Assembly: GCA_041662125.1 (NCBI GenBank)
Contig: JBAZTA010000003.1
Location: 71,992 to 135,991 of the forward strand
Direction: 5' to 3'
DNA from: Candidatus Omnitrophota bacterium
GTDB taxonomy: Bacteria > Omnitrophota > Gorgyraeia > Gygaellales > Profunditerraquicolaceae
DNA: 64,000 nt
The position numbers and the translations under genes were made by a program. A model generated the notes under the pieces. That model made no database searches and was not told the DNA's origin. It saw nothing but the letters and a program-made list of their open reading frames with translations. Shown one piece after another: positions 39,305 through 54,477 of this stretch (its first letter is position 1; each line of letters starts with the position of its first letter).

Positions 39305-39357
39305 GTTCGTATCCTTTTTAGTTTATAGTTTTAGTTTACCGTGAAAATACCGTCACC

Positions 39358-41067
39358 TTATTCAAATTGTTTAAAACGTATCATAGTGTGCGTATGTAAA
39401 ATATATTTTGCAATAGTCATGAGTATCCCGAAACCATAAAAAACAGCAGGTAAGAATTTAATCGTTGAAGCCTCATCAAAATAACGTGTGCGGATAGGTA
39501 TCTCCTCTATCTTAAGGTTGTGCAGAAAAAGCTGTACAATGATCTCGGTGTCGAAAACAAAATTATCGCTGTTGAGGCAATAGTGTATTGAGCGCAGAGT
39601 TTTTGCCGAATACGCCCTAAAGCCGGAATGGTATTCCGTCAGAAATACTCCAAAAGCAATATTCTCCAGCGCAGTAAGGATTATATTAATATTGTGTTTC
39701 CAAAGCGGCATGCCGCCTTCGAGAGCTCCCCCCTTCATCATCCGCGACCCGAATACCGCATCCGCCCTGCCTTGTTCTATCGGTTCGATGAGGTCCGCGA
39801 TTGCTTTGGGGTCATATTGATAATCCGGATGAACCATTATGACAACATCTGCTCCAAGTTCGAGAGCTTTTTTATAGCAGGTTTTTTGATTAGCGCCGTA
39901 TCCTTTATTTCTGTCATGCTCAAATACTTTGAGCCCTAATTTCTTAGCTACGTTTATGGTGTCATCGGTACTGCCATCATCGACAAGCAGTATATCATCA
40001 ACAATATCGCGAGAAATATCGCTTACGGTTTTTTCTAAAGTTTTAGCAGCGTTATAGGCTGGTAAGACCACTATTTTTTTTAGATTATTTCTCTCTGTAT
40101 GAAGGGGAGGAATTTCCAGCTCTTCCAGATATTCAATTTTTCGTATTTTCTTTGCGTATACCTCGATCTGGTCTTTGAAATCAATGGGGAATAATACATT
40201 ACGTATGATCTTTTTTTGGATGAGGAAAATAAAGATATCGTGCAATACTTTATTATATGACTTAAATCTGCTTACCCAGTACTGCAGGCTGAATATCCGT
40301 GTGTGTGATTTGCTTTTTATTGGCATAAAACCAGCAGCGCGCAGCATCGCGAACAGGGTTTTTTGGGTAAAATAAAAAATATGATGCTGTTTAACTCCCC
40401 ACCAGCGCGCTTTTAATATCCTGCTCAGGAAACTGGCTATATCAGGAGTATTAATGCAAATAATCCCATTGGTTTTTAATATTCTTCTTGTTTCAATGAG
40501 TAACCCTTTGGGGTCGGGGATATGCTCTAAAGTATCTTTTATGATGACGACATCAAAAAAATTATTAGCGTAGTGCTTCTCGTGTAAAGAACCTTCAAAA
40601 ATAGTCTCGATTTTAAGGTTTGTTTGAGCATAGTGGACTGCCCATGACGATAATTCTACGCCGTATATTTCCCAGCCTGTTTTGCGTGCTTCGTCCAATA
40701 AAAAGCCTGTTGCGCAGCCTATCTCTAACAATTTCCCCGTCTTTCCCATTTTCTTAAGTATTCGTAAAATTGATTGGTCAGATAACCGCCTTCCTTTCTC
40801 TTCTTGTATATAAAGTTCGTCTTGCATATCTTTATAGGTTGACTTGAGTTCATCAACAGGCTGGCGAGGATTGGCATAGATAAGATTACAATGGCGGCAT
40901 TTAACGATGCGCAGCGGAGCCGCAAGGGTATGGTCGGTTATCGTATAGTTCTTCTTGAGCGTTGATATGTCGCCCGTATAGGTTTTGTATACAACGGTAT
41001 AATTATCGGCGCCGCATAAATTGCACCCTATATTCTCTAACATTTTTTGAACGCTCTTATCATTCAT
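39358..41067 (-). CDS. bifunctional class I SAM-dependent methyltransferase / family 2 glycosyltransferase
   Basis: 569 aa with an N-terminal zinc ribbon (CNLCG...CRHCN) plus methyltransferase (LLEIGCATGFLL), and a C-terminal GT2 (VVLPAYNAAKTL...LLVDDGSTDDT). Confidence 0.75.
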   Translation of the reverse strand: MNDKSVQKMLENIGCNLCGADNYTVVYKTYTGDISTLKKNYTITDHTLAAPLRIVKCRHCNLIYANPRQPVDELKSTYKDMQDELYIQEEKGRRLSDQSILRILKKMGKTGKLLEIGCATGFLLDEARKTGWEIYGVELSSWAVHYAQTNLKIETIFEGSLHEKHYANNFFDVVIIKDTLEHIPDPKGLLIETRRILKTNGIICINTPDIASFLSRILKARWWGVKQHHIFYFTQKTLFAMLRAAGFMPIKSKSHTRIFSLQYWVSRFKSYNKVLHDIFIFLIQKKIIRNVLFPIDFKDQIEVYAKKIRKIEYLEELEIPPLHTERNNLKKIVVLPAYNAAKTLEKTVSDISRDIVDDILLVDDGSTDDTINVAKKLGLKVFEHDRNKGYGANQKTCYKKALELGADVVIMVHPDYQYDPKAIADLIEPIEQGRADAVFGSRMMKGGALEGGMPLWKHNINIILTALENIAFGVFLTEYHSGFRAYSAKTLRSIHYCLNSDNFVFDTEIIVQLFLHNLKIEEIPIRTRYFDEASTIKFLPAVFYGFGILMTIAKYILHTHTMIRFKQFE

Positions 41068-42970
41068 TGAGTGTGAAGTCAGTCAAATAAACACTTCCGC
41101 AGGAGCATCCAACGGAGGGTTCTAAGTATTTATCTGTTATACGGTTAAAAAATTTAAGCGAAAGCACGTATTTGCCTGCAGAAAACCACTCAGGCAGCTT
41201 AATATATTTATATTCTTTTATTATACTGTTTGGCTTCCATAAATATGAAGGCAATATTCTGTAGCAAAGCGGTGAATACAGGCTGGCTATAAGTTTTCCG
41301 GAAGCATCCATGATAGTAAAGACAGTATCAATATCATCGCTGGTCTTTTGCGTCGAGCTCCAATAAAGAATACAGTTTAAATAATTATTTCTTATGTCGG
41401 CTGTTTCATGGCCGAGAAATTCAATTGAGCTGTTTATACGGCAGCGATTGACATTGCTTATGGCAGGCTCTGATTTTAATACGTCATAAAGCGGGTACGC
41501 GTCTTTCTCACCCTTTTGAAATAAAATAAGATTATTGATGACACGCCGGGTTTTCCAATTTCCTGAGTTGATAAAGTCATCGAAACAAGCAAGCGGATTT
41601 TGTTTTAAAAAAGCATAAAAAGTCTGATGGTCATTAGAATCTATCAACGCATATTGGGCATCCGGGGGCAAAAGGTATTTCTTTGAGGATATCGTATAGG
41701 TCCCTATATATACATGGTGGAAAGAATAAAGCGATTTGCGATGAGCAAGATGAGATAAAAATTCAAATGTAGCCACTATTGGGGCATCAGGAGGTATCTC
41801 TTTAAGTAATAAGTCTTTTTCTAGATCCAATTGGGTTTTCTGAAGGAAATTTTTACGATGTTCCAGTAAAACGATATAGGGGCCCATAATTGTACTTGAG
41901 GCGAAGGCGGATAAAAATAAGATACCGGCCGCCGCTGCCTGGTTTTTTTTAACCCATTCTAAAGATGCTATCTTTTTTATTCCATTAATGTATGCGAAGA
42001 AAAGAAATGGTACGATTTCGGCTGTGTAATGATAGAAGATCATGGTTTCCGCTTCGCGATTGGATAATAAGTGCTGCAGAAAAAAAGGCAGCGCAGGCAA
42101 AATACTCAGAGGAGACAGTAACGGTATATATATAAACAATGAGAAAAGTTCGTTCAGGTATTTAATTTTGTCACCCGTAAACATGACTTTGATAACTTCC
42201 CCGGGATGGGTAATGATTTTTATAAGGATACTCGAATATGAATCTCCCAGCTGGCTGTATATCGAGATAAATTCTATCACTCCTTTGTTGCAGTACGGTA
42301 AGATGATAAAGATGCACAAACAGAAATATAAAACTCCCAATACTATCGGCGTAATGATCCAGGCGCGTTTTTTACGTTTGAGGAGCGCATAGAACCCCAG
42401 CGCTATAACGGCAAGTGAAATATTCTCCTGGCAGGACATTGCTAATATCATACATAAAAGATAATTCCTGAATTGATTTTTTTGAAAATAATAAAGCGTG
42501 CAGAGTAAGAAAAAGGTCGAAAATGCTATGGGATGGAATTCGTATAAGTTAATAAAGCCTAATAAAGGATTGATAAGGTATAGTAACGCGATCAGCAGGG
42601 CCCATCGGTATCCTACGATAAGCCTGGCGAGATAGTATAGTGGGTATGCCCCTGCTCCTAAAGCTAATGACTGCAGGAAGAGAAGTGTGCAGGGATGGGG
42701 AAATAGTTTGTAGAAAGGCGCCAGTAAGAACGTGATGGGGTGTACATGGTTACCTAAGAAATTTATCCCTAAAATAGAGTTATAGAGTGAGCCATGCAGG
42801 ATATTCCACATGATCTGGGAGTGTACCGCAAGGTCGAAATCCCAGTAAGCAAAAGCGCGATATTTGAGGAAACAAAGTGCGCTCAGAAAGGCTACATAAA
42901 GTATGATGCTGACGTTGAGCAATAAAATCACGCTGCGTTCTTTTATGTTAGATATTGATCCTGTGCTCAT
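41060..42970 (-). CDS. large polytopic membrane protein, DUF2079-like (putative glycosyltransferase of the GT-C type)
   Basis: 636 aa with about 12 TM helices in the N-terminal half (YRAFAYWDFDLAVHSQIMWNILHGS) and a soluble C-terminal domain. Confidence 0.45.
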   Translation of the reverse strand: MSTGSISNIKERSVILLLNVSIILYVAFLSALCFLKYRAFAYWDFDLAVHSQIMWNILHGSLYNSILGINFLGNHVHPITFLLAPFYKLFPHPCTLLFLQSLALGAGAYPLYYLARLIVGYRWALLIALLYLINPLLGFINLYEFHPIAFSTFFLLCTLYYFQKNQFRNYLLCMILAMSCQENISLAVIALGFYALLKRKKRAWIITPIVLGVLYFCLCIFIILPYCNKGVIEFISIYSQLGDSYSSILIKIITHPGEVIKVMFTGDKIKYLNELFSLFIYIPLLSPLSILPALPFFLQHLLSNREAETMIFYHYTAEIVPFLFFAYINGIKKIASLEWVKKNQAAAAGILFLSAFASSTIMGPYIVLLEHRKNFLQKTQLDLEKDLLLKEIPPDAPIVATFEFLSHLAHRKSLYSFHHVYIGTYTISSKKYLLPPDAQYALIDSNDHQTFYAFLKQNPLACFDDFINSGNWKTRRVINNLILFQKGEKDAYPLYDVLKSEPAISNVNRCRINSSIEFLGHETADIRNNYLNCILYWSSTQKTSDDIDTVFTIMDASGKLIASLYSPLCYRILPSYLWKPNSIIKEYKYIKLPEWFSAGKYVLSLKFFNRITDKYLEPSVGCSCGSVYLTDFTLNE

Positions 42971-43031: not shown

Positions 43032-45233
43032 TTACAAAACAGGTTGTATAGCTTTGAACAGCGGTAATTCTACTATAAATTTAGTGCCGATTGTGTGCTG
43101 CGATTCGATGAAGATCTTTCCTGTATGGGTATCGGTGATGATCTTGTTGATGACGTATAGCCCCAGGCCCGTGCCTCTGCGCGAAGAAACCTTTGTGGTA
43201 AAAAACGGGGTAAAAAGTTTTTTAAAGTTCTCTTCCTTGACCCCCATGCCGTTGTCCTGGATTTCAATGCGCATGATAGCGTCTTGTTCCTGGGCGCGGA
43301 TGGTTATCTTGCCCCTATACCCTTCTTCTTGCAGCGTCGTTCTTCGTTCTACGATAGCATCGTAGGCATTATCGATAAAATTGAAGAATACTTCTTCTAA
43401 TTGTACGAGGTTGCCTTTGATTTTTGCTAAATCTAAGGGATATTCGCGAATGAGGTCGAAATCAGCTAATTTGACTTTATACTGGACCATGGCTAAGGTG
43501 CCGTCAATGATCTGGTCCATGGTCAGGGCTTCAAAACCTTCGTTTCCTTTACGGGTGTATTTTAAAATACCTTTGACTACTTCTCCACCCTGGATGACAT
43601 TAAACTGTATGCGTTCAAGGGCATGGTTGATCTGGCCTAACATAACTTTGATCTCAGGCGAACAGTTTGAAGCGTCGGTTATTTTGATGGTGTCAATAGT
43701 GTCTCCGGCGATCAATGAGAGCGCGTAAAAGCGGTTATTAATCTGATGTGATAACCCGTCAGCCATAGTGCCGATAGTAGCCATTTTTTCAGCCTGGGCG
43801 ATCTGCTCTTGCATATTTTTGGCATCTTCATAGAATTGGGCGTTTTCAATGGCTAAGGCTGCCTGGCTTGCAAGTATCTGAAAAACATTGAGGTCTTCAA
43901 GCGTGTAAATTTGTCCGGAAAGTTTGTCGCCGAGAACAATAAAACCGAGAAGTTTGTTTTCAAGGAAGCTGGGAATGATGACCGCGGCGGACAAAAGGTT
44001 CATATTTTCTTCCAGCGCTTTGTATACAGGCTCGTTAAAATCCTGCATTTTCCGTTTTACTTCTTCGTAAACCAGCGGCTGCCTGGTTTTGTTGATCCAG
44101 GTCAACAACGGATTTTTTGAAGATATTTTTTTAGCAAGAGCTCTTTTTTTGTCCCTGCAAACTTGTAGAGTGAACTCTTGTTCTTCTGTATTAAAAAGAT
44201 AGATCGCTGCGAAAGAAATCCTTACAGTTTTGGTAATGATGTGAGTGATCAAATCAAAAAGTTTGGCCAGATTTCTAATACGCGTTATACCGATTGAGGC
44301 CTGTTTTAAGGTGTTTTGGTATCTTTTTTGTTCTTTGAGTATCCTTCCTTCTGCTTTGCGTTCTAAATAAATATAAATAAATGGGCCAACAGTCGCTAAA
44401 ACTGCCATCAGGATTAAAGGAATAGCCCACCAATTCAGGTTAAATATGCCGATCAGCCAATATTTCGCCAATAATGCTACCGCAAACGGAATTCCTAAAA
44501 CAAAAGTGTAAACAAGCACAAAAATACCAGTGCGGGTTATGGCGACTTTAATATCCATCAAGCGGTATTTAATAATGGCATAGGTGGCGACGCAAACATA
44601 GACCGGGACTGCGTAGGTGCCGTACGGGTTCAAGGGGAAAATATCAAGATCATAAATAATAAGGAAATTATTGACGCCACCGATAAATCCAAAAAGAGAA
44701 CTCCAGAAGAGGTATTTCATCTGGTTATGCCGCAGCCCTTTTGAGTGTATATATTCAAGAAAAAGGCGTAATAAACCATAAGCAACGCAAGCCGCGAAAT
44801 AAAAGACAAAAAGATGATACCATATTCCTCCCGGTGTCATCAGATAGAGCACGTTATGCCGGGGAGTGACATTTTTTACAAATAAAGATGTGAATCCTGC
44901 TGCAACTGAAACGCAGGCTATAAAATACATGAGCCGCAGGAGCCATTTTTTTAGCGGTGTGATCATATCGTTCAGGAAGACCAGGACAAAATGCACGAAG
45001 GTGACCGGGATGAAAGCGGCGCCGATATGCAGGGCGTGCGCCGCAAATATTGATGTTTCTTGGTTTCTGGTAAATCCGTGTATTGAGACAAAGAAACTCC
45101 AAATAGAGATACTGAAAGAGTAGAGCGCGAAAATTCTGTTCAGTTTGGCTTTTGGGTTCTTGATAAATACGAATAACGCCAGGAATAATGTGGTGAGCGA
45201 TGTTAATAAGGTTGAGATGGCGAAATTGTTCAT
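43032..45233 (-). CDS. sensor histidine kinase (polytopic N-terminal sensor, GAF, HisKA, HATPase_c)
   Basis: 733 aa with about 7 N-terminal TM helices, a GAF domain, a H-box ATIGTMADGLSHQINN, and N/G boxes (DNGMGV...GTGLGL). Confidence 0.85.
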   Translation of the reverse strand: MNNFAISTLLTSLTTLFLALFVFIKNPKAKLNRIFALYSFSISIWSFFVSIHGFTRNQETSIFAAHALHIGAAFIPVTFVHFVLVFLNDMITPLKKWLLRLMYFIACVSVAAGFTSLFVKNVTPRHNVLYLMTPGGIWYHLFVFYFAACVAYGLLRLFLEYIHSKGLRHNQMKYLFWSSLFGFIGGVNNFLIIYDLDIFPLNPYGTYAVPVYVCVATYAIIKYRLMDIKVAITRTGIFVLVYTFVLGIPFAVALLAKYWLIGIFNLNWWAIPLILMAVLATVGPFIYIYLERKAEGRILKEQKRYQNTLKQASIGITRIRNLAKLFDLITHIITKTVRISFAAIYLFNTEEQEFTLQVCRDKKRALAKKISSKNPLLTWINKTRQPLVYEEVKRKMQDFNEPVYKALEENMNLLSAAVIIPSFLENKLLGFIVLGDKLSGQIYTLEDLNVFQILASQAALAIENAQFYEDAKNMQEQIAQAEKMATIGTMADGLSHQINNRFYALSLIAGDTIDTIKITDASNCSPEIKVMLGQINHALERIQFNVIQGGEVVKGILKYTRKGNEGFEALTMDQIIDGTLAMVQYKVKLADFDLIREYPLDLAKIKGNLVQLEEVFFNFIDNAYDAIVERRTTLQEEGYRGKITIRAQEQDAIMRIEIQDNGMGVKEENFKKLFTPFFTTKVSSRRGTGLGLYVINKIITDTHTGKIFIESQHTIGTKFIVELPLFKAIQPVL

Positions 45234-45240
45234 AGTTTAC

Positions 45241-46287
45241 TTATTTTAAGACAAAATAACTTTGACTGGCGAAATCAAAACGGCGTTCTTCAACGATCGT
45301 ATACCCTGTTTTTTTAAACAGCTCTCTCCATTCTTCCCGGGAGAGCAGGTGTTGTTTTGCTAATGAGTGAAAGAGATGATGTTCAGCGATGGCAGATGCG
45401 TTTTTACGTATTATTTCAGAGGGTTGCCTGCAAAGTTCACAAATGATGAGATATTTGTCCTTGAAACGATTTTTTAGTTTTTTAAAAAGCTCGGTTAACC
45501 TGATTAAGTCGTCACCGATAAACTCATGCATGACATACATGCTGGTAATGGCGTCAACATCATCTAAAGCAACATCTATTGTATCAATTTTAAAGATATC
45601 TCCAACAAGTAATTTGATTTTTTTATCTAACCCGCGCTTAGTGACTTGTTCCCGGGCGTAGTTGATTGATTCCGCGGAAAGGTCAATGCCGTAACCGCAG
45701 AGCTTTTTTTCGTGGCCGCAGAGACTTATTAAGAATTCGGCGCTCCCGCAGCCTAAATCCATGACTTTTTTAAACTTGTATTTTTTGATGATATTCCTGG
45801 TCATGGGAAAGGGTAGCCATTTTTCTGTCTCAGCGCTTGCTTGAGAAACCGATTTTTCTCTACGGATAACATCTTTTCCGTACACTTTTTCTTTTTTGAG
45901 CAATGCTTCCAGGTTTTCAAAAATGGGGGCGTACGCGTGTAGAAAAAAGAATGCTCCTTGCGCATAGGTCAATGCGTGCTTGCTTTTTTTGGTTAGAAAA
46001 TAATCGTTTCCTTTTTTTTCAAGCATGCGCACCGCGTAAAGGTATTCGCAGAGTATAGTGAGTGTTTCTTTATCTAAATGCTTCTGCCGTGAGAAATCAG
46101 CGCAGTTAATCATCCCTTTTTCAGAGATGAGTTCAAAGAATCCTACATGAATGAGGCTGACCATGCAATGCATGGTCATGTAACTGCGAGCGTATTTTAA
46201 TATTTCACCGTGAGTTTTCTTGATGTCGGAAACCTGTTTTGTCCCTAGTGTTTTAATCAGATCGTATACCTGCTGTATCATAGTCAT
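45241..46287 (-). CDS. SAM-dependent O-methyltransferase-like protein
   Basis: 348 aa with an N-terminal dimerisation-like helical domain, then motif I VMDLGCGSAEFL and motif post-I. Confidence 0.7.
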   Translation of the reverse strand: MTMIQQVYDLIKTLGTKQVSDIKKTHGEILKYARSYMTMHCMVSLIHVGFFELISEKGMINCADFSRQKHLDKETLTILCEYLYAVRMLEKKGNDYFLTKKSKHALTYAQGAFFFLHAYAPIFENLEALLKKEKVYGKDVIRREKSVSQASAETEKWLPFPMTRNIIKKYKFKKVMDLGCGSAEFLISLCGHEKKLCGYGIDLSAESINYAREQVTKRGLDKKIKLLVGDIFKIDTIDVALDDVDAITSMYVMHEFIGDDLIRLTELFKKLKNRFKDKYLIICELCRQPSEIIRKNASAIAEHHLFHSLAKQHLLSREEWRELFKKTGYTIVEERRFDFASQSYFVLK

Positions 46288-46880
46288 ATTCCTTTCCCCT
46301 GTTTATATGGTCGTAAGGGTAAAAAAGCATTCACCGCTTTTTTGTAGTGTAAATAAATATCGGGGAACCTCGAGAGTAATTCTTTTTCTTCTAGTTTTAT
46401 GCGCGTTAAAAGAAACGGCGCCTGGATTAACGCTACCGCCGTAACAGTCAAATATGAATTTGAAATCAATGAAAAACCGGTTAATTCAAGGATGACCGCC
46501 AAATAGTACGGGTGGCGTATAAATTGGTATGGTCCCGTGGTAATGATTTTCTTTACCAATTTGGCGCTAACATGGATATTCCAATTATCGCCACATTCTT
46601 TCATTGCTGCAGCGCGAAGTTTTATTCCGGTAAGAAAAATACTGAATCCCAGGGCACTTATCCAATAATTGACCGGCCGGTTTCCCGAAAAATATTCAAC
46701 TATCGCCAGAGCGGCTATTATGCAATACGTAATCAGGGGGATAGTGGTTATTAATTGAGGTGTTTGATGGGCGACTTCTTTTGATACGGCAAAAGTTGCG
46801 CTTGCCCGTTCGATGGCAAAACAAACAATAACAATAAGGTAAAAAGAACTAAAGATCGTTTCTGTCTGGAACTTATGCAT
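46284..46880 (-). CDS. isoprenylcysteine carboxyl methyltransferase (ICMT)/PEMT-family membrane methyltransferase
   Basis: 198 aa with 4-5 TM helices and the C-terminal signature TTGPYQFIRHPYYLAVILE. Confidence 0.75.
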   Translation of the reverse strand: MHKFQTETIFSSFYLIVIVCFAIERASATFAVSKEVAHQTPQLITTIPLITYCIIAALAIVEYFSGNRPVNYWISALGFSIFLTGIKLRAAAMKECGDNWNIHVSAKLVKKIITTGPYQFIRHPYYLAVILELTGFSLISNSYLTVTAVALIQAPFLLTRIKLEEKELLSRFPDIYLHYKKAVNAFLPLRPYKQGKGI

Positions 46881-46990
46881 TAGTGCGTTTAAACAAAGAT
46901 CGGCAATGCATCGATGAATTCCGTGCCGATTTTATGCTGTGATTTGATGAATGTTTTACCTTTATATTTTGTTGATCCTGTACGCATGGA

Positions 46991-47368
46991 TTATTTCCCC
47001 AGGTTCTTTTTTACCGCCGAAATAAAGACTTCGACGTCAAACGGTTTATAGATATAATCAGCGACGCCAAGCTGTTGAGCTTCGATCCTGTTTTCGTCTG
47101 AGGCATAGCCGGTTATGATGATTTCAGGGACAGTAGTATTATATTTATCCTTGATTATCTGCCGTAATCGTTTAATAGTCTCTATCCCGTTCATCCCGGG
47201 CATGCGGATATCGGCAATGATCAGGTCAAAAGAACAAACTTCAGCGGCTTGTAGCGCTTCTTGGCCGCTTGCGGCTGATGCTATGTCATAGCCGAAGGTT
47301 TTCAGGTAGCGCGTTAAAGTTTTAAGCACCAGGGAATCATCATCAACCACGAGAATGTTTTTATCCAT
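46991..47368 (-). CDS. single-domain response regulator
   Basis: 125 aa with receiver residues VVDDD, DLIIADIRMPGMNG and a conserved K. Confidence 0.85.
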   Translation of the reverse strand: MDKNILVVDDDSLVLKTLTRYLKTFGYDIASAASGQEALQAAEVCSFDLIIADIRMPGMNGIETIKRLRQIIKDKYNTTVPEIIITGYASDENRIEAQQLGVADYIYKPFDVEVFISAVKKNLGK

Positions 47369-47394
47369 AGTAAAACTCCTTCTTCGTATAGAGT

Positions 47395-47808
47395 TTACAG
47401 GTTAGTAAAGTTTACGATCACCTGTTTCATATTATCGGGTATATTGGTGAATTTCTTGGCTATAACATCGACAAAGGCTACTTTTTGCACGCCTTTTGCG
47501 ATAACGTTACCGGTGCGCTCATTTTTAAAGTCTATATGCATCTCAAAGGATATTTTTTTGATATTGGCGGTAGTTAAGATCGCCTGGATCTTGTCTGCCC
47601 AGCGGCAGGTTCCGGTCACGGTGATAGATAATCCCATGGTGAACATTTGTATGGGACTTTCCACGAATTTCAGGTGGTCCGGGCAGGAAGATTTAAAATA
47701 CTGTTCTCTGGTCATGGACATCCATTCGCCGATCTTTTCCAAATGGACTTTTCCTGATGCTGACAGGTCTTCAAAATAGATGTCAAATCCGGAATTGAAT
47801 GTTTTCAT
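47395..47808 (-). CDS. hotdog-fold thioesterase-like protein
   Basis: 137 aa with the 4HBT-like pattern FEDLSASGKVHLEKIGEWMSMTREQYF. Confidence 0.4.
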   Translation of the reverse strand: MKTFNSGFDIYFEDLSASGKVHLEKIGEWMSMTREQYFKSSCPDHLKFVESPIQMFTMGLSITVTGTCRWADKIQAILTTANIKKISFEMHIDFKNERTGNVIAKGVQKVAFVDVIAKKFTNIPDNMKQVIVNFTNL

Positions 47809-47814
47809 GTAAGT

Positions 47815-48285
47815 TTAATATTTAAACAGCAATGATTTTTCGTCTACTGCAATAGGGGTTAAGATATTTTTGACCAGATTTTCCGGTAGATTTACCACAT
47901 CTGCTGTTTTTGAATTACGGAAGCATATTTTTTGCTTTCCCAGGCTTATCAATAACGCGTTATCTTTACGGATCAAAGTAAACAGAAGATTGAATCCTTT
48001 TTCTTTGATGTCCGCAGCGTTGACTTTAATGAGAATTTCATCCTGCAGTATAGCTTCACGCTTATACTGTATGTCGCAAAAAGAAACTTCGGTTTCGATA
48101 AGCGGTTTTAAGTTCTCCTGGAAACCGAGGTTTTTCCAGGCCAAAAGCGCGTCTCGGGCAATATTGTACCAGCGGATATAGTTGATAAACGAAGCGCTTC
48201 CGTAGGGAGTTGTGTCTCCCTGTGTTACGATAAGCTCGAATATGAATTCACGCTGTTTGGACGCCGTAAATATTGGTTGGTTCAT
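47815..48285 (-). CDS. hotdog-fold (4HBT-family) thioesterase-like protein
   Basis: 156 aa with VTQGDTTPYGSASFINYIRWYNIARDALL, similar to the YbgC/4HBT active-site region. Confidence 0.45.
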   Translation of the reverse strand: MNQPIFTASKQREFIFELIVTQGDTTPYGSASFINYIRWYNIARDALLAWKNLGFQENLKPLIETEVSFCDIQYKREAILQDEILIKVNAADIKEKGFNLLFTLIRKDNALLISLGKQKICFRNSKTADVVNLPENLVKNILTPIAVDEKSLLFKY

Positions 48286-48286
48286 T

Positions 48287-48661
48287 TTACTTTAAGTTTT
48301 TTTTGACTATCTCCAGGAAATCTTTTATATCAAACGGTTTAGAGAGATAATCGGCAACTTTGAGTGCCTGCGCCTCTTTCAAATGCTCATCACTGGAGTA
48401 TCCGGTGATCAGTATCTCCGGTATGGGCTTCTTTTGGGATATCTTATAATAATGCCTGATATTTTTGATAATTTCAAGACCGTTTACTTCGGGCATCCGG
48501 ATATCTGATACCACCAGGTTAAATTCGATTTCTTTTATCTTTTCCATCGCTTCAGTATTATTACGGGCAATAGCGACAGTATAGCCCTCTTTTTTAAATA
48601 ATCGTTTTAAGCTTTCTGTCACTAATTCTTCGTCATCGATCACCAGGATGTTCTTACTCAT
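48287..48661 (-). CDS. single-domain response regulator
   Basis: Start reassigned to MSKNILVIDDEELV (ATG at 48659-48661) and the receiver domain is complete. The track's longer start would overlap the kinase gene. Confidence 0.85.
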   Translation of the reverse strand: MSKNILVIDDEELVTESLKRLFKKEGYTVAIARNNTEAMEKIKEIEFNLVVSDIRMPEVNGLEIIKNIRHYYKISQKKPIPEILITGYSSDEHLKEAQALKVADYLSKPFDIKDFLEIVKKNLK

Positions 48662-48692
48662 AGCGCTCCTTACTTTTTTAAAAAAATTAAAC

Positions 48693-50852
48693 TTACAGTG
48701 TGCTGAGTTCTTTAGCGTCAGGCAGTAAAATATTGAATACCGTCCCTGTATTGACTTCTGATTCAACCGTGATCAACCCTTTGTGTTTTTCAATGATTGA
48801 TTGGCAGATCGACAAGCCAAGCCCTAATCCTTTTCCGACATCTTTGGTTGTAAAGAACGGATCGAATATCTTAGAAATGATCTCTTTTGGGATGCCGCTG
48901 CCTTCATCTTTGATCAACATTTTTATCCATTTGCCGCTTTTGGCGACAGAAACATGAATTGTCCCGCTTTTTTTAACGCCGATAATAGCGTCTTTGGCAT
49001 TTATGAGAATATTCGTTATTACCTGTTCCAATTCATTCTGGTTGCCTAAGACAAAACAATTCCTTTCTTTTTCTTCTATATCGATCTTTATATTATCTTG
49101 TTCAAATTGGTAGCTTAAGAATGCGATTACTTTGTTTAATATGTCGGATACCAGGATTCTGCCGATCTTTGACTCTTCAAGGGGCTTTTTCGCGTATGCC
49201 ATCAATTTCTGAACGATCGTGCGGCAGCGTTTTGTTGCCTCTTCTATAAGCTCTAAAGATTCTTTGGAATCGATATCCAGGGTGTCGCAGGTTGCAAGGA
49301 GTATCTGGACATTGGTCAATATCGCAGTTAAGGGATTGTTGATCTCATGGGCAACGCCGCCGGCAAGGGTGCCAACGGTCGCCAGCTTCTCAGCGTGCAC
49401 AAGCTGCTTCTGGACATCGACTAATTCTTCAGTGCGTTGTTTAACTTCCTCTTCTATCTTGCCATATAATTGCGCGTTTTCTGTTGCCAGGGCCGCCTCG
49501 CTGGCTAAAAAAGAAAAGTTCAATAAATCGTCAGAATTATAGATCTTCCCCGAAAGTTTCTCACCCAGGATCAGTATGTCAAATATTTTATCTTGCAGGA
49601 AACAGGGTACTATAACGGCGGCATTGAGTTTTCTCATTTGTTCTTCTAACTTCTTAAAGTCCTGTTTAGAATTATCTTCGGCTTGGTGTTTGATTTCTTC
49701 GTATACTAAGGGTTCTTTATTCTTTTCAAGCCAGGAGATCAATATGTTTTTGTGTTCGATGCTCTGTGGTTGGGAATCTTTTACATGGGTGCCGGCCTTT
49801 AAAAGAAAAACCTTCTTTTTTGCATCGAGAACATAGATGATCGCATGCGAGATACGGACAACTTCAGTTACCGTCTGAGCGATATAATCGATCAATTTTT
49901 GTAAATTACGGATCCTGGAGAGATCAACCGCCACATGTTTGAGGGTTTCTTGATAACGGCGTTGTTCCCGCAATAATATGGACTCTGCCTTTTTTTCAAG
50001 ATACACGTAGACAAACGGCCCGATGGTCCCTAGCATCACTAATGAAGAAAATGGGCCCATCCACCAATTCGTACCTAAATGTCTCATAAACCATTCTTTG
50101 AGAACTGCAGAAAGAATAAAAGGGATCCCCAAGACAATAGAATAAACCGCTAAAAATACAGCAGCGCGGGTAATGACGATTGAAATATCCATGATCCTGT
50201 ATCTGACGATAGCGTACGCTGTCGCTAGGATAAAAATGATTACCGGTGCAAATCCAATAGGATAGATTTCGATGCCGTAATGCGCTAAATAATCCAATCC
50301 TCCTAAATAACCAAAAGAAATCGCCCAGAACATGTATTTTGCTCTTTGGCGTTCCAGCGCAAGCCTAGCTGAAAGGTATCCGAGCCGAAGGTTACGAAAG
50401 GCCATGATCAAAGGTGTAATCCAGAATATGAGGAAAATATTGTGTAAGACGCCGATTTTCGTATGGTATCCCCAATAGTGCATGGTTACTCCGTTTACCA
50501 GCAGGCTTGTTCTCGTGAGAAGCGCAAAAATAAAGGCTAAGAGGTAAAAAAAAGTGATTATCCTGTTTTTTTGCGGTATTTTTACAAAGGCGACCGAAAA
50601 ATGGTATGTCGCAGGAGTAATAAAGGCGATCCCCAGGTAGGCGAATTGACACCAGAAATAGGCTGATTTTTCCGCAGTGCTTATATAAGACATAAAATAA
50701 CCCAGGTTCCAAAGAAAGCAGCTAAAACCCAATATTCCAAATGCCCTATTTGCGGAAGATTTCCTGTTTTTGAGATAAACAAACGCGCCGATGATCAAAC
50801 AAAATAAAGCGGTGATTAACGGCGGTATCGCATAAGGATTAAATTTAAACAT
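48693..50852 (-). CDS. sensor histidine kinase, paralog of 43032-45233 (polytopic sensor, GAF, HisKA, HATPase_c)
   Basis: 719 aa with the same architecture as the first kinase: H-box ATVGTLAGGVAHEINNPL and ATP lid DEGSGIP...GLGLGLS. Confidence 0.85.
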   Translation of the reverse strand: MFKFNPYAIPPLITALFCLIIGAFVYLKNRKSSANRAFGILGFSCFLWNLGYFMSYISTAEKSAYFWCQFAYLGIAFITPATYHFSVAFVKIPQKNRIITFFYLLAFIFALLTRTSLLVNGVTMHYWGYHTKIGVLHNIFLIFWITPLIMAFRNLRLGYLSARLALERQRAKYMFWAISFGYLGGLDYLAHYGIEIYPIGFAPVIIFILATAYAIVRYRIMDISIVITRAAVFLAVYSIVLGIPFILSAVLKEWFMRHLGTNWWMGPFSSLVMLGTIGPFVYVYLEKKAESILLREQRRYQETLKHVAVDLSRIRNLQKLIDYIAQTVTEVVRISHAIIYVLDAKKKVFLLKAGTHVKDSQPQSIEHKNILISWLEKNKEPLVYEEIKHQAEDNSKQDFKKLEEQMRKLNAAVIVPCFLQDKIFDILILGEKLSGKIYNSDDLLNFSFLASEAALATENAQLYGKIEEEVKQRTEELVDVQKQLVHAEKLATVGTLAGGVAHEINNPLTAILTNVQILLATCDTLDIDSKESLELIEEATKRCRTIVQKLMAYAKKPLEESKIGRILVSDILNKVIAFLSYQFEQDNIKIDIEEKERNCFVLGNQNELEQVITNILINAKDAIIGVKKSGTIHVSVAKSGKWIKMLIKDEGSGIPKEIISKIFDPFFTTKDVGKGLGLGLSICQSIIEKHKGLITVESEVNTGTVFNILLPDAKELSTL

Positions 50853-52314
50853 GTGGTTTTCTTTTGTGTTTATATGCGTACTGATGATAATTGAGCCCGG
50901 TTAAGATCCACATTATTGAAGTGCATTGTTTGTTCCAGAGGCTCTTCAATATAAATTTTACCTCTCCCGTATTGAAGCTTAGTAAGGAGAGTAAAGAAAT
51001 CAAGAAGCGAGTTTTCGAAAATAAAGTCTTATTTTCCTGCCTGACAAAAATACCTTTATTCCATAAATATTGTAAGCGTTCATATAAACGAGGATAAGAA
51101 TAAATATCTTTGAGGAGCCATGTCTGGCCGTCCTCTAGCTGTTGCTGTGAAATAAGTTTAGGCCTGTAACAGGCCCAGTCAGCGTTCGCTTTCCACCATT
51201 CGAAACCGAGAGCTCTCTGTTCAGCTTTTAACCTCGCAAAAACTTTTGAGCCGGGAAGCAGCGTCATAATATTGATCATTGAAAAGGCGATGTGAGTATC
51301 TTGTATAAACCGGGCTGTTTCTTTAAAAATAGCATCCGTATCAGTATCGCTTCCTAAGATGAAAGACCCAAAAATAGACATTTTATGTTTATGCACTTTT
51401 TCAATTATTCCTTTATACTCATTGGTTTTATTTATCATATCTTTATTCATTGATGCCACACTCGGCTGGGAAATTGATTCAAATCCAACGAAAATAACCC
51501 GGCACCCCGCAGCATACATTAAATCTAACATAGTGTCGTTGGATAACCTGTTTATTGAAGACTGGCACATCCAGTTCTTTATTTTAAGAGGGACAAGTCT
51601 TTTAAACAAATCTTGAGCATACGCAGGAATTGAAAGCAGGTTATCATCAGTAAAGAAAATTAACTTTTGCGTGTCAATTGCTTGCAGTTTTTTGATCTCT
51701 TCAACGACAATGTCGATCCTTTTATGCCGGTATTCCCGTCCGTTAAACTCTTTTACGGTGCAAAATTCGCAGTCGTAAGGGCAGCCGCGGCCGGTTTGAA
51801 TAGTAAAATAGCAATAGCGTTGGTTTTTCAGCAGGTCCCAACGGGGTATGGGGGAATGCGTCAGGTCAGGGAATCCGCTCGTGCGGTAGGTTTTTTGCAA
51901 ACTTCCTTTTCTGGCGTCTTCTATTACCTGTTGCCAAATTTCTTCAGCTTCTCCGATAACAACTGCATCGCTGTGCTGTGCTGCTTCTTCAGGCAGCATT
52001 GAAGCATGAATGCCGCCCATGATGACTAAAACGCCTCTTTTTCTGAATTCATCCGCGATCGCGTAAGCGCGCGGGATAACACAGGTCATTCCCGTAATTC
52101 CTACGAGGTCAACATGCTCGTTAAAATCAATCGTTTCAACATTTTCGTCAGTGAGGATTACTTCGATATCGCCAGGAGTGAGTGCCGCTAAAGTAGGAAG
52201 TGCAAGTGGGGCCCCTCCTGCTTTTTTACGGGTCAGGTGAGAAAGTGTTTTTAAATCCCAGAAACTTTCCCCCCACTCATCCAGTCTTTTTGGTGAGATG
52301 AGTTTTATTCTCAT
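50845..52314 (-). CDS. B12-binding radical SAM protein (class B rSAM)
   Basis: 489 aa with an N-terminal cobalamin-binding Rossmann domain (DLVGITGMT) and a radical SAM core with GRGCPYDCEFCTV. Confidence 0.85.
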   Translation of the reverse strand: MRIKLISPKRLDEWGESFWDLKTLSHLTRKKAGGAPLALPTLAALTPGDIEVILTDENVETIDFNEHVDLVGITGMTCVIPRAYAIADEFRKRGVLVIMGGIHASMLPEEAAQHSDAVVIGEAEEIWQQVIEDARKGSLQKTYRTSGFPDLTHSPIPRWDLLKNQRYCYFTIQTGRGCPYDCEFCTVKEFNGREYRHKRIDIVVEEIKKLQAIDTQKLIFFTDDNLLSIPAYAQDLFKRLVPLKIKNWMCQSSINRLSNDTMLDLMYAAGCRVIFVGFESISQPSVASMNKDMINKTNEYKGIIEKVHKHKMSIFGSFILGSDTDTDAIFKETARFIQDTHIAFSMINIMTLLPGSKVFARLKAEQRALGFEWWKANADWACYRPKLISQQQLEDGQTWLLKDIYSYPRLYERLQYLWNKGIFVRQENKTLFSKTRFLISLLSLLSFNTGEVKFILKSLWNKQCTSIMWILTGLNYHQYAYKHKRKPHV

Positions 52315-53875
52315 GAATGATGCTTTGCATCCTTTCTATAAGCTGATTGTCTATCAGTGTATCTCCCCAATAAAAATCAGCAACTTCAAAACCATGCTTT
52401 TTGCCTAAATTTCTGATTTCTTCAATTTTTTCTATTGTAATATTGCCTCTTCCAAAGCTGTAATTTTCAAAGCGTTTTTCTAAAGCCAGGATTATTCCCT
52501 CAGCGAAACATCCGTATATCACGTGCGGCGACGGAAGCCCAAAATCAAGCGGAAAGGCTATGGGTGTCGGGCTTTTCGCTAATCCTCCGGAAAATACAAA
52601 GATGTCGTTTCTTTGTGTCGGCGCGTGAGAAATGTTTTTTGGATAGCCCACATCGCAAATAATGGCTCCCGGTTTAAACCATTCGACCTGCAGAATGGGC
52701 GCTGTAGCGCTGGCAGCTGAAATAATAATATCCGCGCCTTCGACCGCCTTTTTATTATCTAAACTGATCGTTACGCGGGCTTTCTTTTTTTTCTTTAATT
52801 CAGCGCTCAATTTGCTTAAATGTGATTTTGTCCTGCCGGTAATGACAAGGTTTTTTACTGTATCAGTAAAAAACCGGGCACAGGCGCTTCCGATATCTCC
52901 CGTGCCGCCTATAATCGCCAAGGTTGATTTACTGATGTCCAAGTTTACTAAATCAGCTGCTTTTAAAACACCGTCAATAGCCATCGCTGCAGTATAGGTG
53001 TTCCCTGAGGTGACTGCGATATCGACTTCTCGTGAGATCTCCTGTCCGATCCGCTCAGCGACAATAGAGGTAAAACCGCCTAAGGTAACAATGCCAATAC
53101 CGTGTTTTTCGGCGATTTTGCAGGCGCGGACTACCTTCGAAAATACGCTCCAGATATCTTTTTCCATCATATCGGGAATGAATGTTGCGATCATAAATGA
53201 ACCATTCACGCTTTCCCCTGTCCGGGACCTGAAATCATTGATATCATAGAGTTTAAACGAAGGGCTGACATGGAAGAGCTGGCTGACAAATTCAGGAGAG
53301 CTGACGTTGAAATTCGGATTTAACGTCTTAAAGCATTTTTCCAGGTGCGAGAAATCATAGGGGTGGGCGATAATACCAAAGCCGGCTACCTTATCGATGT
53401 TGCCGTGTTTATAACTATCATAGCGAAGCGAGATTATTTTCTTTTCAATCGCTTCCAACATCGCTTCAAAATTCTTCGTGAGCAGTTTTTTTATGTAGCT
53501 TTCCGCAAATTCTTTTATCGCGGGAATATCGACTTTAAGCGAAACGTTAACGGTCACCAGAGTGCCCTGCGGATCGTCCTGGAACTTCCAGGAGCCTTTA
53601 AATTCATGCAGGTCGCCTTCGCTTGCTTTAAATAGGATTTGGTTATGAGTAAGGTTGAGCGTGTCAACTTCTGTCCAGCTCATGGGGATACTGTCGACCT
53701 GGATCTTCCATTTTGTTTTAATCGTATTATGGATTTTTTCTAAGACAGTGACTTCCTTGACATTGGGCATATAGCCGGGAAATTCATTGACTTTGGTCAG
53801 TAACCTGATCACTCTCCATTTTTTCGCGGGTATTAACTTTGAAACGTTTATTTCTATGAGTTCATTATTTTCCAT
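52277..53875 (-). CDS. SRPBCC (START/Bet v1-like lipid-binding) domain fused to NAD(P)-binding Rossmann oxidoreductase (COG5322-like)
   Basis: 532 aa: an N-terminal ~150 aa polyketide-cyclase/SRPBCC-like domain, then a dinucleotide fold IIGGTGDIGSACARFF. Confidence 0.55.
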   Translation of the reverse strand: MENNELIEINVSKLIPAKKWRVIRLLTKVNEFPGYMPNVKEVTVLEKIHNTIKTKWKIQVDSIPMSWTEVDTLNLTHNQILFKASEGDLHEFKGSWKFQDDPQGTLVTVNVSLKVDIPAIKEFAESYIKKLLTKNFEAMLEAIEKKIISLRYDSYKHGNIDKVAGFGIIAHPYDFSHLEKCFKTLNPNFNVSSPEFVSQLFHVSPSFKLYDINDFRSRTGESVNGSFMIATFIPDMMEKDIWSVFSKVVRACKIAEKHGIGIVTLGGFTSIVAERIGQEISREVDIAVTSGNTYTAAMAIDGVLKAADLVNLDISKSTLAIIGGTGDIGSACARFFTDTVKNLVITGRTKSHLSKLSAELKKKKKARVTISLDNKKAVEGADIIISAASATAPILQVEWFKPGAIICDVGYPKNISHAPTQRNDIFVFSGGLAKSPTPIAFPLDFGLPSPHVIYGCFAEGIILALEKRFENYSFGRGNITIEKIEEIRNLGKKHGFEVADFYWGDTLIDNQLIERMQSIIHENKTHLTKKTG

Positions 53876-54458: not shown

Positions 54459-54477
54459 ATATATAAATAGCGACGAG

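Follow-up and report, generated by a model that had tools for sequence, protein, structure and literature searches.

In the α-hydroxyketone systems CqsA/CqsS of Vibrio and LqsA/LqsS/LqsR of Legionella, as well as in agr, the synthase gene adjoins that of a kinase with a transmembrane-helix ligand site; in staphylococcal agr, the synthase and the sensor domain are hypervariable and the kinase core is conserved. In the Rpf/DSF system of Xanthomonas, the signal, derived from a fatty acid, is cut from acyl-ACP and sensed by a polytopic membrane kinase, whose output involves a receiver together with a c-di-GMP phosphodiesterase of the HD-GYP type. The phc quorum-sensing system of Ralstonia consists of the methyltransferase PhcB, the kinase PhcS and the receivers PhcR and PhcQ, and signals with a 3-OH fatty-acid methyl ester; the SAM methyltransferase gene is followed by that of the membrane sensor kinase and then by those of receivers without DNA-binding domains (PMC11960443). 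The locus described here, found in a 64-kb stretch of DNA from an uncultivated Omnitrophota bacterium (the window), resembles phc in layout, as the preliminary description had suggested: a methyltransferase gene precedes a membrane kinase gene, and the response regulators have no DNA-binding domains. Cassettes with fused enzymes in related loci are ordered MT, HK, RR, RR, as in phcBSRQ, and the product that we predict, a methylated fatty-acyl acid, is of a similar class to the phc signal. Unlike phc, the locus has two methyltransferases of other families, an MppJ-type C-methyltransferase and a membrane ICMT, along with thioesterase or ketosynthase partners, enzyme-attached REC domains and a 7TM + GAF sensor; no equivalent of the LysR-type PhcA was seen. 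The similarity to Rpf lies in a receiver (RR3) and a GAF-HD-GYP protein, which are present in the window and directly follow the HK1-type kinase in two relatives (L122 and L125). However, no crotonase-type RpfF was found, the thioesterase being of the hotdog or LuxD-like type; the locus adds methylation steps, and REC and HD-GYP are separate proteins, located 16 kb from HK1 in the window. The resemblance to Cqs, Lqs and agr is proposed as an analogy only, their synthases having an unrelated chemistry (aminotransferase-like CqsA; peptide AgrD/AgrB).

We take the eight genes for the variable core of a conserved Omnitrophota signalling locus, in which each polytopic 7TM-GAF kinase is encoded right behind enzymes that draw an acyl chain from fatty-acid metabolism and methylate it, and consider the chances of this interpretation to be about even. 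The ORFs of all eight genes were found at the coordinates given by the preliminary description, with the domains it named, including the four bracketed enzymes (a class-I methyltransferase, an ICMT/PEMT membrane methyltransferase and two 4HBT_2 hotdogs); the mirror-image arrangement it reported holds for the order of gene types and fails for orientation, all eight genes, like almost everything in the window, being on the minus strand. Most of them are linked via start/stop overlaps or spacers of 1–31 nt: the ICMT gene runs 4 nt into the start of MT, the HK1 gene begins 7 nt past MT, RR2 is located 1 nt upstream of hotA, and the hotdog pair is flanked by RR1 and RR2. The block is not self-contained, as the upstream rSAM gene stops 8 nt into HK2. 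Neither an ACP gene nor an acyl-activating gene was found in the eight-gene block.

The soluble MT (45241..46287, minus strand), judged by its sequence, belongs to the MppJ/SgvM/MrsA family of class-I, metal-dependent keto-acid C-methyltransferases, which also suggests its substrate. It shares the two-domain architecture of this family, and its best PDB matches are MrsA (5e-13), MppJ (1e-10) and 8ftr (6e-9), the last labelled only 'Methyltransferase' and taken by us to be SgvM. The metal ligands are conserved, MT residues H254, E255 and H307, invariant in the family, aligning with MppJ H243, D244 and H295 (the Zn ligands of SgvM are H244 and H296), and conservation extends to the position that corresponds to MppJ R127; the identity to MppJ, SgvM and MrsA is only about 20–25%, and the match to the NCBIfam 2-ketoarginine MT model scores 126 bits against a cutoff of 425 bits. 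MppJ, SgvM and MrsA are α-keto-acid β-C-methyltransferases tied to an NRPS or antibiotic pathway, whereas the window MT is tied, or fused in relatives, to ICMT and a sensor kinase. The acids expected from a thioesterase or ketosynthase are β-keto or plain acids, unlike the α-keto acids of the MppJ family. The MT had been described as O-methyltransferase-like; its nearest characterised relatives are C-methyltransferases, so any carboxyl methylation, a step of the original proposal, would be left to the ICMT (46284..46880, minus strand), a polytopic membrane methyltransferase of the ICMT/PEMT family (Pfam ICMT 4.8e-18; PDB 5v7p 5e-11, 4a2n 2e-7). ICMT-MT fusions are common: they were found in P0005, P0019, P0021 and P0026, and, among the 26 best cluster representatives, in about 10, with lengths of 524–550 aa.

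Upstream lie the genes of hotA (47815..48285, minus strand), a CalE7/SgcE10-type hotdog thioesterase-like protein (4HBT_2 2.3e-9; PDB 4i4j 9.5e-6, CalE7 4.8e-4), and hotB (47395..47808, minus strand), a second, divergent hotdog (4HBT_2 1.2e-5; PDB 4i4j 3e-3), which adjoins hotA in every case and is its probable heterodimer partner. The closest solved relatives of both are ACP-thioester hydrolases of enediyne PKSs. In hotA, Y36 aligns with Y29 of CalE7 and R44 with its R37, R44 not being kept in distant orthologues; hotB retains the Arg as R34, which is invariant across the family; the similarity to CalE7, DynE7 and SgcE10 is weak (E 1e-5 to 3e-3), and the window locus differs from them in having no PKSE partner and two paralogous subunits. 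The position of the YbgC catalytic Asp (D18) is occupied by T26 in hotA and S16 in hotB, and distant hotdog orthologues still contain the canonical Asp. The preliminary description had named the lack of the catalytic Asp/Glu as evidence against its model, and both window hotdogs do lack the canonical 4HBT/YbgC Asp; this argument is weak because CalE7, DynE7 and SgcE10 are active thioesterases without that acid.

HK1 (43032..45233, minus strand, 733 aa) is a 7TM-GAF-HATPase sensor kinase (HisKA_7TM 1.2e-17, GAF 9e-9, HATPase_c 6e-22), and HK2 (48693..50852, minus strand, 719 aa) contains 7TM, GAF-like, HisKA and HATPase domains (HisKA_7TM 4e-16, HisKA 7e-13, HATPase_c 1e-23). They are paralogues, as had been proposed (34% identity across the full length, E=2e-141); of the two GAF domains ascribed to them, that of HK1 was confirmed and that of HK2 gave a sub-threshold match only. 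The H-box of HK2 is canonical (AHEINNPL) and that of HK1 atypical (SHQINNRF), and HK1 may be a weak kinase because Gln replaces the acidic residue after the phospho-His. HK2 and its L001 orthologue are 52% identical in the 7TM, 84% in the GAF and 87% in the kinase core; for HK1 and its orthologues encoded behind other enzymes, the values are 41–52%, 65–69% and 68–93%, a pattern reminiscent of agr. In close relatives, tandem enzyme-then-kinase units have cores 93% identical to that of HK1 and 7TMs only 44–52% identical. However, faster evolution is usual for TM domains compared with catalytic cores, and the 7TM of L064, although an MppJ-like MT precedes it, resembles that of HK1 (43%) no more than do the 7TMs behind unrelated MTs (41–47%), so co-diversification of enzyme and sensor is not demonstrated.

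Each kinase had been thought to adjoin a receiver gene; this is true of HK2, separated by a 31-nt spacer from RR2 (48287..48661, minus strand; Response_reg 6.9e-26), and not of HK1, since the ICMT and MT genes lie between it and RR1 (46991..47368, minus strand). The receiver-only proteins RR1 and RR2 are 50% identical and form one REC clade with the REC of REC-KS fusions and the RRs beside hotA/hotB, with post-kinase RRs standing apart; the RR1 orthologue in L125 (65% identity) occupies the same place before the MT-containing slot. A third receiver-only protein, RR3 (26364..26732, minus strand; Response_reg 2.5e-26), is encoded next to a GAF + HD-GYP protein (25188..26357, minus strand; Pfam HD_5 1.8e-36), a candidate c-di-GMP output, in which the HD and HHERYDGKGYP motifs were read directly from the sequence. 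RR3 is 63% identical to the RR following HK1 in L125, L122 is arranged likewise, and the RR-HD_5 pair is kept in L122, L124 and L125. The segment of about 16 kb between HK1 and RR3 in the window (26800..42970, minus strand), encoding DUF2079, MT-GT2, a 357-aa protein, T2SS/T4P-like proteins and a secretin, does not occur at the corresponding place in L122 or L125.

On the other side, HK2 is preceded by the gene of a B12-binding radical SAM enzyme, rSAM (50845..52314, minus strand), which shares only 60% identity with the orthologue in L001 (flanking genes, 86–93%), and by SRPBCC-AAR (52277..53875, minus strand), a fusion of an SRPBCC lipid-binding domain (Pfam Polyketide_cyc 1e-15) with an acyl-ACP-reductase-like domain (NCBIfam AcACP_reductase 1.6e-51, under cutoff). 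SRPBCC-AAR is a repeated partner of HK2-type kinases, seen again in L001, L090, L124 and L125. Next come a PlsC-type acyltransferase (53865..54554, minus strand; Pfam Acyltransferase 7.6e-27), whose real start is probably internal to the 229-aa ORF, and a 347-aa acyl-ACP-reductase-like paralogue (54478..55521, minus strand), similar to the AAR domain of SRPBCC-AAR in a phmmer search and without a Pfam match. The latter is the first gene past the single large intergenic gap upstream of the array (55522–55874), which contains the best promoter-like site of the region, a sigma-70-like TTGACA-17-TATATT (55810..55838, minus strand; 11/12, a consensus match only); the region has as many such matches as shuffling would predict. 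Genes for lipids and glycolipids surround the locus in the window, a setting that fits membrane homeostasis equally well.

The link between the enzymes and the kinases was assessed in two MT clades, which comprise 21 non-redundant loci, with neighbours counted within 6 kb. Both ICMT and a 7TM-GAF kinase were found near MT in 19 of them, the two exceptions ending at a contig edge, and neither neighbour was found for the remaining 63 MT homologues (Bryobacterales, Streptomyces, tandem-ketosynthase KS-KS loci). The presence of the triad in every adequately flanked member of the two clades supports the functional coupling of enzymes and membrane kinases, as initially proposed. For acyl handling, the loci have either the two hotdogs, with a REC gene ahead of them, or a FabF-like ketosynthase, which in the largest group is fused to an orthologous REC. 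Kinase-anchored searches yielded four loci only (L122–L125), in all of which the gene immediately ahead of the HK1-type kinase encodes a SAM-MT, each time of a different family. L125 shows synteny with the window to either side and retains its whole frame (SRPBCC-AAR, rSAM, HK2, RR, slot, RR, slot, HK1, RR, HD-GYP); its MT slot contains one fused protein made up of SRPBCC, a LuxD-like acyl-ACP thioesterase/acyltransferase (Acyl_transf_2 8.8e-34) and MT. Taken together, the recurrent triad, the upstream methyltransferases and the L125 frame support the proposed succession of thioesterase, methylation and sensor as a working model, and the L125 fusion repeats this logic independently.

The enzymes encoded just ahead of each kinase probably free a fatty-acid-like molecule and methylate it. 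HotA/hotB, probably as a heterodimer, would cleave an ACP thioester to set free a (keto)acyl acid; the MppJ-type MT, to judge from its family, would C-methylate the carbon beside the chelated keto-acid group, and the membrane ICMT, given the family chemistry and the ICMT-MT fusions, may esterify the carboxylate. The hydrophobic methylated product would enter the membrane and be read by the 7TM of HK1, and HK2 would probably read the product of the upstream SRPBCC-AAR/rSAM branch likewise. Such a molecule may serve between cells, as a quorum signal, or solely inside the envelope of its producer. Phosphotransfer to the receiver-only proteins would follow; RR1 and RR2, orthologous to the ketosynthase-fused REC, most likely control the enzymes by protein contact, a post-translational feedback on synthesis, and RR3 and the GAF-HD-GYP protein, located beside HK1 in relatives, may relay the state to c-di-GMP.

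Alternatively, though we regard this as unlikely, at roughly one chance in four, the enzymes may modify bulk envelope lipids with no dedicated signal molecule, the 7TM kinases sensing the physical or compositional state of the membrane like DesK and tuning the enzymes via REC domains; the AAR-like, PlsC, rSAM, DUF2079, GT2, MGDG-synthase-like and LpxL-like flanking genes would belong to the same function. Lipid and glycolipid biosynthesis genes do flank the locus in the window and in L001, L122, L124 and L125, the ICMT has a relative in the lipid A phosphate methyltransferase LmtA (NCBIfam match 3.4e-8), and the REC-KS and REC-MT (L123) fusions and receiver-only RRs suggest direct control of enzymes, not of transcription. 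However, the cassette also occurs away from any lipid genes, next to trp genes (L063), SSB (L056) and mobile or toxin-antitoxin genes (L002), and all characterised MppJ-family enzymes act on free α-keto acids. Homeostasis would also not lead one to expect the swapping of enzymes at one slot (hotdog, KS, LuxD-MT, MT_20, MT_31), nor the tandem units with diverged sensors.

It is rather improbable that the kinases detect fatty or keto acids of prey, host or environment, which the REC-controlled enzymes would detoxify or assimilate by methylating or esterifying them. Capping toxic free acids by methyl-esterification is plausible, Omnitrophota are called predatory bacteria in the title of a preprint, and a FadL/TodX outer-membrane channel for hydrophobic molecules is encoded inside cassette L067, where it would suit our main interpretation too, but in this one cassette only; thioesterases, FabF-like ketosynthases and acyl-ACP-reductase-like enzymes use endogenous ACP thioesters, which argues for synthesis. 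Receptor adaptation, i.e., CheR-like methylation of the kinases or their partners that resets sensitivity under REC or PilZ control, seems very improbable: some methyltransferase always stands upstream of HK1-type kinases in L122–L125, the REC-MT and PilZ-MT fusions resemble REC-controlled CheB, and ICMT, named after a protein carboxyl methylase, forms a minimal pair with the kinase in L001 and L105, but the window MT retains the metal-binding His/Glu/His triad of small-molecule enzymes, lipid enzymes (KS, thioesterases, LuxD-like, SRPBCC) accompany the methyltransferases, neither kinase has a Cys-containing motif at its C-terminal end, and the cassettes showed no methylesterase gene. That the eight genes are adjacent merely because almost the entire window is co-directional, with promoter and terminator scans of the region at chance level, is hardly credible and already contradicted by the start/stop overlaps, the gene fusions and the conservation of the triad and its accessories where MTs are 33–76% identical and the surroundings change.

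No description of a family of units that make and sense a lipid signal was found in the searchable literature. The signalling framework kept in the relatives of this locus, with its enzymes swapped, suggests that such a family exists.

The eight genes at 43032-50852 all lie on the minus strand and encode, in order of transcription, the 7TM sensor kinase HK2 (48693-50852, 719 aa), the receiver-only protein RR2 (48287-48661, 124 aa), the hotdog proteins hotA (47815-48285, 156 aa) and hotB (47395-47808, 137 aa), a second receiver-only protein, RR1 (46991-47368, 125 aa), the ICMT/PEMT-family membrane methyltransferase ICMT (46284-46880, 198 aa), the class-I methyltransferase MT (45241-46287, 348 aa) and the sensor kinase HK1 (43032-45233, 733 aa). 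Pfam and NCBIfam searches bear out the domain calls of the preliminary description, which had proposed a mirror-image pair of two-component systems, each kinase having an adjacent receiver; the mirror image is seen in the order of gene types but not in the strand, and RR1 is not beside HK1, since the two receivers lie on either side of the hotdog pair. The block belongs to a longer tight array comprising genes for an acyl-ACP-reductase-like (AAR-like) protein, PlsC, an SRPBCC-AAR protein and a B12-dependent radical SAM (rSAM) protein, then the eight genes, DUF2079, a methyltransferase–GT2 fusion and a 357-aa protein. The rSAM and HK2 genes overlap by 8 nt and those of ICMT and MT by 4 nt, MT and HK1 are separated by 7 nt, and most remaining spacers measure 1–31 nt; the sole large gap (55522-55874) bears the best promoter-like match (11/12). 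Match counts in the promoter and terminator scans were at the shuffle or chance level, so the operon boundaries are drawn from spacing. An Rfam scan of the block found no RNA element. The window MT is identical to NCBI MFA6217127.1 (396-kb contig, Candidatus Omnitrophota MAG), where the public gene call begins two codons later.

Several other features of the window can be mentioned. The 347-aa AAR-like protein (54478-55521) has no Pfam match and is a diverged paralogue of the AAR-like domain of the SRPBCC-AAR gene located two genes downstream; its orthologue is found near the kinase in locus L122. Genes for a BtuF/FecCD/ABC transporter set (15186-20136) have a cobalamin riboswitch upstream (20309-20497, minus strand, 86.6 bits), and CobT and a TonB-dependent receptor are encoded further on; corrinoid import and remodelling are probable for this organism and would be in keeping with the B12-dependent rSAM at the locus. 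A match to bacterial RNase P class A RNA (6453-6954, minus strand) spans 502 nt against the 367 positions of the model, which implies sizeable insertions.

Pfam, NCBIfam and PDB searches with MT indicate MppJ, SgvM, MrsA and ApyS; the best solved relatives are the 2-ketoarginine methyltransferase MrsA (5e-13), MppJ (1e-10) and PDB entry 8ftr (6e-9), labelled only "Methyltransferase", which we take to be SgvM. MrsA, MppJ and SgvM are metal-dependent beta-C-methyltransferases acting on alpha-keto acids, and MT has their metal site and two-domain fold: H254, E255 and H307 align with H243, D244 and H295 of MppJ (two His and a carboxylate), are invariant in family alignments of 26 and 21 sequences, and are accompanied by R142, which aligns with MppJ R127. 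In SgvM, the Zn ligands include H244 and H296 (PMC10502145). The MppJ-type relatives and the invariant metal ligands mark MT as a small-molecule enzyme, for which C-methylation is, judged from these alignments, more likely than O-methylation. The score of 125.9 bits does not reach the 2-ketoarginine methyltransferase equivalog TIGR04543 (cutoff 425), and MT is, by its sequence, a family relative of that enzyme and a different enzyme.

ICMT passes the Pfam ICMT gathering score (65.8 bits vs 24) and matches ICMT structures from Tribolium and Methanosarcina; in the alignment with PDB 5v7p (5e-11), the RHPxY and EE regions correspond. It remains below the isoprenylcysteine-specific equivalog NF040696 (60.4 bits; cutoff 160), so that an isoprenylcysteine substrate is not implied. 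The two methyltransferases also occur as a single ICMT-MT protein (P0005, P0019, P0021 and P0026); of the 26 best-ranking representatives from a library of 1.84 billion proteins, about 10 are such fusions, 524–550 aa long. No kinase fusion was found among the five ICMT homologues listed.

Both hotdog proteins pass the 4HBT_2 gathering score of 25.5 (hotA with 38.2 bits, hotB with 26.2 bits), and their closest solved relatives are SgcE10, CalE7 and DynE7, hydrolases of ACP-bound polyketides. An AfsA-like butyrolactone synthase was considered for the pair and rejected, 4HBT_2 being the sole match. The pair had been described as thioesterases, but T26 takes the place of the catalytic Asp of 4HBT thioesterases (YbgC D18 / 4HBT D17) in hotA, and S16 does so in hotB; at the YbgC D18 position, Asp is retained in distant orthologues from other cassettes (SDTD, KHTD). 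This loss is no proof of inactivity, since CalE7, reportedly described by Kotaka et al. in 2009, is said to use Tyr29 and Arg37 and to work without an acidic catalytic residue. The equivalent of Tyr29 in hotA, Y36, is invariant in the hotA family, and that of Arg37, R44, is present in the window clade only, the distant hotA orthologues retaining the Asp at the YbgC D18 position instead; hotB has only R34 of this pair, with Arg-Glu invariant at that site.

HK1 and HK2 each contain an N-terminal HisKA_7TM domain, a phospho-acceptor His and HATPase_c, as expected of HisKA_7TM sensor kinases, and share 34% identity from end to end (E=2e-141); the GAF domain is clear in HK1 and sub-threshold in HK2, where it can be aligned with that of HK1. 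Identification as the PEP-CTERM/exosortase kinase PrsK was rejected (TIGR02916, 90–98 bits vs a cutoff of 300), the resemblance being one of architecture only, as was the label of a T2SS-associated kinase, with scores far under the cutoffs. HK1 has no Pfam HisKA match and retains the phospho-acceptor His in SHQINNRF. The H-box of HK1 (43032-45233) reads MADGLSHQINNRF; in HK1-type kinases of this clade, Gln replaces the Glu/Asp that normally follows the phospho-His, and Arg replaces Pro three residues on, changes that may point to a weak autokinase or to a bias towards phosphatase activity. RR1 and RR2 are 50% identical and both have complete Asp pockets.

A recurrent cassette emerged when metagenomes were scanned with the MT subfamily and the neighbours were labelled with phmmer, the loci collected in this way being biased towards MT. 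When 84 non-redundant MTs are placed in an NJ tree, the loci that have ICMT and a 7TM-GAF kinase no more than 6 kb away group into two clades, one of 17 and one of 4 members; both neighbours are present in 19 of the 21 members, the two exceptions ending at a contig edge, and in none of the 63 other MTs was either neighbour found. The matches listed in a contig scan with the broad MT alignment were distant homologues (Bryobacterales, Streptomyces) that had neither a kinase nor ICMT nearby; these served as a negative control and were not used for Omnitrophota synteny. The acyl-handling partner has two alternative forms, which never co-occur in the surveyed loci. The first, a receiver (REC) gene with hotA and hotB, is found in the window and in L001, L061, L067, L074 and L090; in L067 (2.17-Mb contig), a gene for a FadL/TodX-type outer-membrane channel of the kind that passes hydrophobic compounds (6993-8393) is located between the receiver and hotA. 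The second is a FabF-like ketosynthase (KS), which is fused to REC in the largest group (L002, 8299-10008; L057, 761-2452; L066, L079 and L083) and unfused in L065, L070, L075, L077 and L100. The fused ketosynthases resemble FabF (2e-98 to 4ls5) and, in all five distinct REC-KS loci, have Cys-His-Tyr for Cys-His-His, with Tyr at the second catalytic His (EAYGNATP); the unfused enzymes keep Cys-His-His, except for the degenerate L100 protein. In a REC tree, RR1, RR2, the receivers beside hotA/hotB and the REC of REC-KS make up one clade, and the single and tandem receivers that follow kinases fall outside it; on this basis, RR1 and RR2 are probably the unfused equivalents of a receiver that is attached to an enzyme elsewhere. 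Cassettes with fused enzymes are ordered MT-HK-RR-RR.

With the sensor half of HK1 as query, more than 800 homologues were obtained, far above the return for the MT family, and the named homologues among the 120 best matches are nearly all from Omnitrophota. In the kinase-anchored set, which comprises four loci only, a SAM-methyltransferase gene directly upstream of the HK1-type kinase is present in 4/4 cases, each time of a different family: a Methyltransf_20-like enzyme in L122, a REC-MT fusion in L123, a receiver followed by a Methyltransf_31 enzyme in L124, and a 711-aa fusion of SRPBCC, Acyl_transf_2 (LuxD-like acyl transferase/thioesterase, 8.8e-34) and class-I MT in L125 (5861-7996). 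The MppJ-like profile found nothing significant in the methyltransferases upstream of the kinases in L122–L124, which belong to other methyltransferase families. The 711-aa fusion is also present in L061 (1081-3213), where RR1, the fusion and a kinase precede ICMT-MT; on paper, its domains would make it a one-protein fatty-acid methyl-ester synthase. Close relatives differ by whole units, L001 having an extra ICMT and kinase in place of the window RR1.

The surroundings of this variable slot are conserved. L125 keeps the whole frame of the window, namely SRPBCC-AAR, rSAM, an HK2-type kinase, a receiver, a slot, a receiver, a slot, an HK1-type kinase, a receiver and a GAF-HD-GYP protein, and continues, as in the window, with MGDG-synthase-like, LpxL-like, GT2 and PCMT genes; identities to the window are 59% for RR2, 65% for RR1, 63% for RR3, 63% for GAF-HD-GYP and 68% for the MGDG-synthase-like protein. 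Two PilZ (c-di-GMP-binding) proteins were noticed: one in L125 (4111-5460), within the signalling locus, is fused to a Methyltransf_20-like methyltransferase, and one of equal length and position in L063 (8037-9389) has a Pfam match to PilZ alone and is at most a candidate for the same fusion. The receiver-only protein RR3 (26364-26732) and the GAF and HD-GYP protein that follows it (25188-26357, motif HHERYDGKGYP) form a pair that several Omnitrophota loci conserve beside the MGDG-synthase-like, LpxL-like, GT2 and PCMT genes. In the window, this pair is about 16 kb from HK1, and in L122 and L125 it stands directly after the HK1-type kinase, so the intervening stretch (26800-42970) was probably inserted, as it would have been in L001, which shares it; it contains a secretin, PilM/N-like proteins, pseudopilins, T2SS F and E ATPase, DUF2079, the methyltransferase–GT2 fusion and the 357-aa protein, which has no Pfam matches.

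Identities of the kinases were also compared by domain. Compared with its strict orthologue in L001, HK1 shows identities of 89% (7TM), 85% (GAF) and 84% (kinase core); compared with kinases behind other enzymes, the values are 41–52%, 65–69% and 68–93%, and two of these kinases have a core 93% identical to that of HK1 and a 7TM just 44% and 52% identical. HK2 and its L001 orthologue share 52% (7TM), 84% (GAF) and 87% (core). The rSAM (50845-52314, 60%) and the HK2 7TM (49953-50852, 52%) form a divergent patch relative to L001, surrounded by SRPBCC-AAR, the HK2 GAF/kinase part, RR2, hotA and hotB, which are 84–93% identical (86–93% for the flanking genes); this pattern suggests that the rSAM and the adjoining sensor domain were replaced together. 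Fast evolution is typical of transmembrane domains anyway, and in the few available cases 7TM similarity does not track the MT type.

With family assignments, synteny and fusions directly observed, the conservation, the fusions and the behaviour of the slot make functional coupling of enzyme and kinase very likely. The order of thioesterase, methylation and membrane sensor proposed in the preliminary description gains support from the SRPBCC-thioesterase-MT fusion, which is found independently in the same slot. In the most economical model that we infer for substrates, product, ligand–receptor relation and phosphotransfer partners, an acyl or keto-acyl acid would be released from ACP, C-methylated by the metal-dependent MT and O-methylated by ICMT; the hydrophobic product would be detected by the 7TM domain, REC-mediated feedback would act on the enzymes, and the output would pass to c-di-GMP via RR3 and HD-GYP. 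The block holds no ACP gene, and the substrates of the MppJ family are so far alpha-keto, not beta-keto, acids. The main rival explanation is regulated remodelling of envelope lipids instead of a signal, which fits the surrounding lipid genes; however, the swapping of enzymes, the tandem units and the occurrence of cassettes in unrelated contexts are hard to explain by it. Taken together, the signalling observations permit a tentative, rather doubtful reading as diversifying private lipid-signal circuits of Omnitrophota, similar to agr or com pherotypes in their units of synthase and matched sensor, where each swappable synthase would have a dedicated 7TM sensor that evolves fast while the kinase core is conserved, with post-translational control of synthesis by REC/PilZ and a c-di-GMP read-out. 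The synthases seen include a hotdog thioesterase or ketosynthase with ICMT and C-MT, the LuxD-MT fusion, REC-MT and PilZ-MT.

We rate the locus as a variant of a known general kind, a cognate synthase with a sensor kinase for a putative lipid-derived signal. The layout is like that of Ralstonia phc, a methyltransferase followed by a kinase and receivers without DNA-binding domains, as RR1, RR2 and RR3 are; phc receivers likewise have no DNA-binding sites (PMC11960443). The matches of the window MT are to the MppJ group. In phc, the signal sensed by the kinase is a 3-hydroxy fatty-acid methyl ester. The likeness to Rpf/DSF consists of a polytopic kinase, an acid presumed to derive from acyl-ACP and a putative output through REC and HD-GYP; no crotonase-family match, as expected of the synthase RpfF, was found among the block and flank proteins scanned, which comprised all but a few smaller ORFs. 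Both likenesses are of layout. Literature text searches revealed no HisKA_7TM kinase linked to ICMT or other methyltransferase genes, and no description of REC-ketosynthase fusions.

The cassette genes are small and could be expressed in a heterologous host, which would allow a check of the central claim that needs no cultivation. The variable enzyme slot and the diverged 7TM domains on near-identical cores offer a natural panel for the co-evolution of ligand–receptor specificity. The REC-KS, REC-MT and PilZ-MT fusions would represent two-component and c-di-GMP systems that switch biosynthetic enzymes directly and not via transcription, with REC-ketosynthase and REC-methyltransferase constituting, if this is true, a new class of response-regulator output. 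If the model holds, it would add to phc and DSF a third way of making bacterial signals enzymatically from fatty acids and give Omnitrophota, a widespread candidate phylum without a cultured model, a concrete and testable signalling chemistry; on the reading as private circuits, and as far as the searches show, this would be the first cell–cell signalling proposed for these uncultivated, ultra-small and possibly predatory bacteria.
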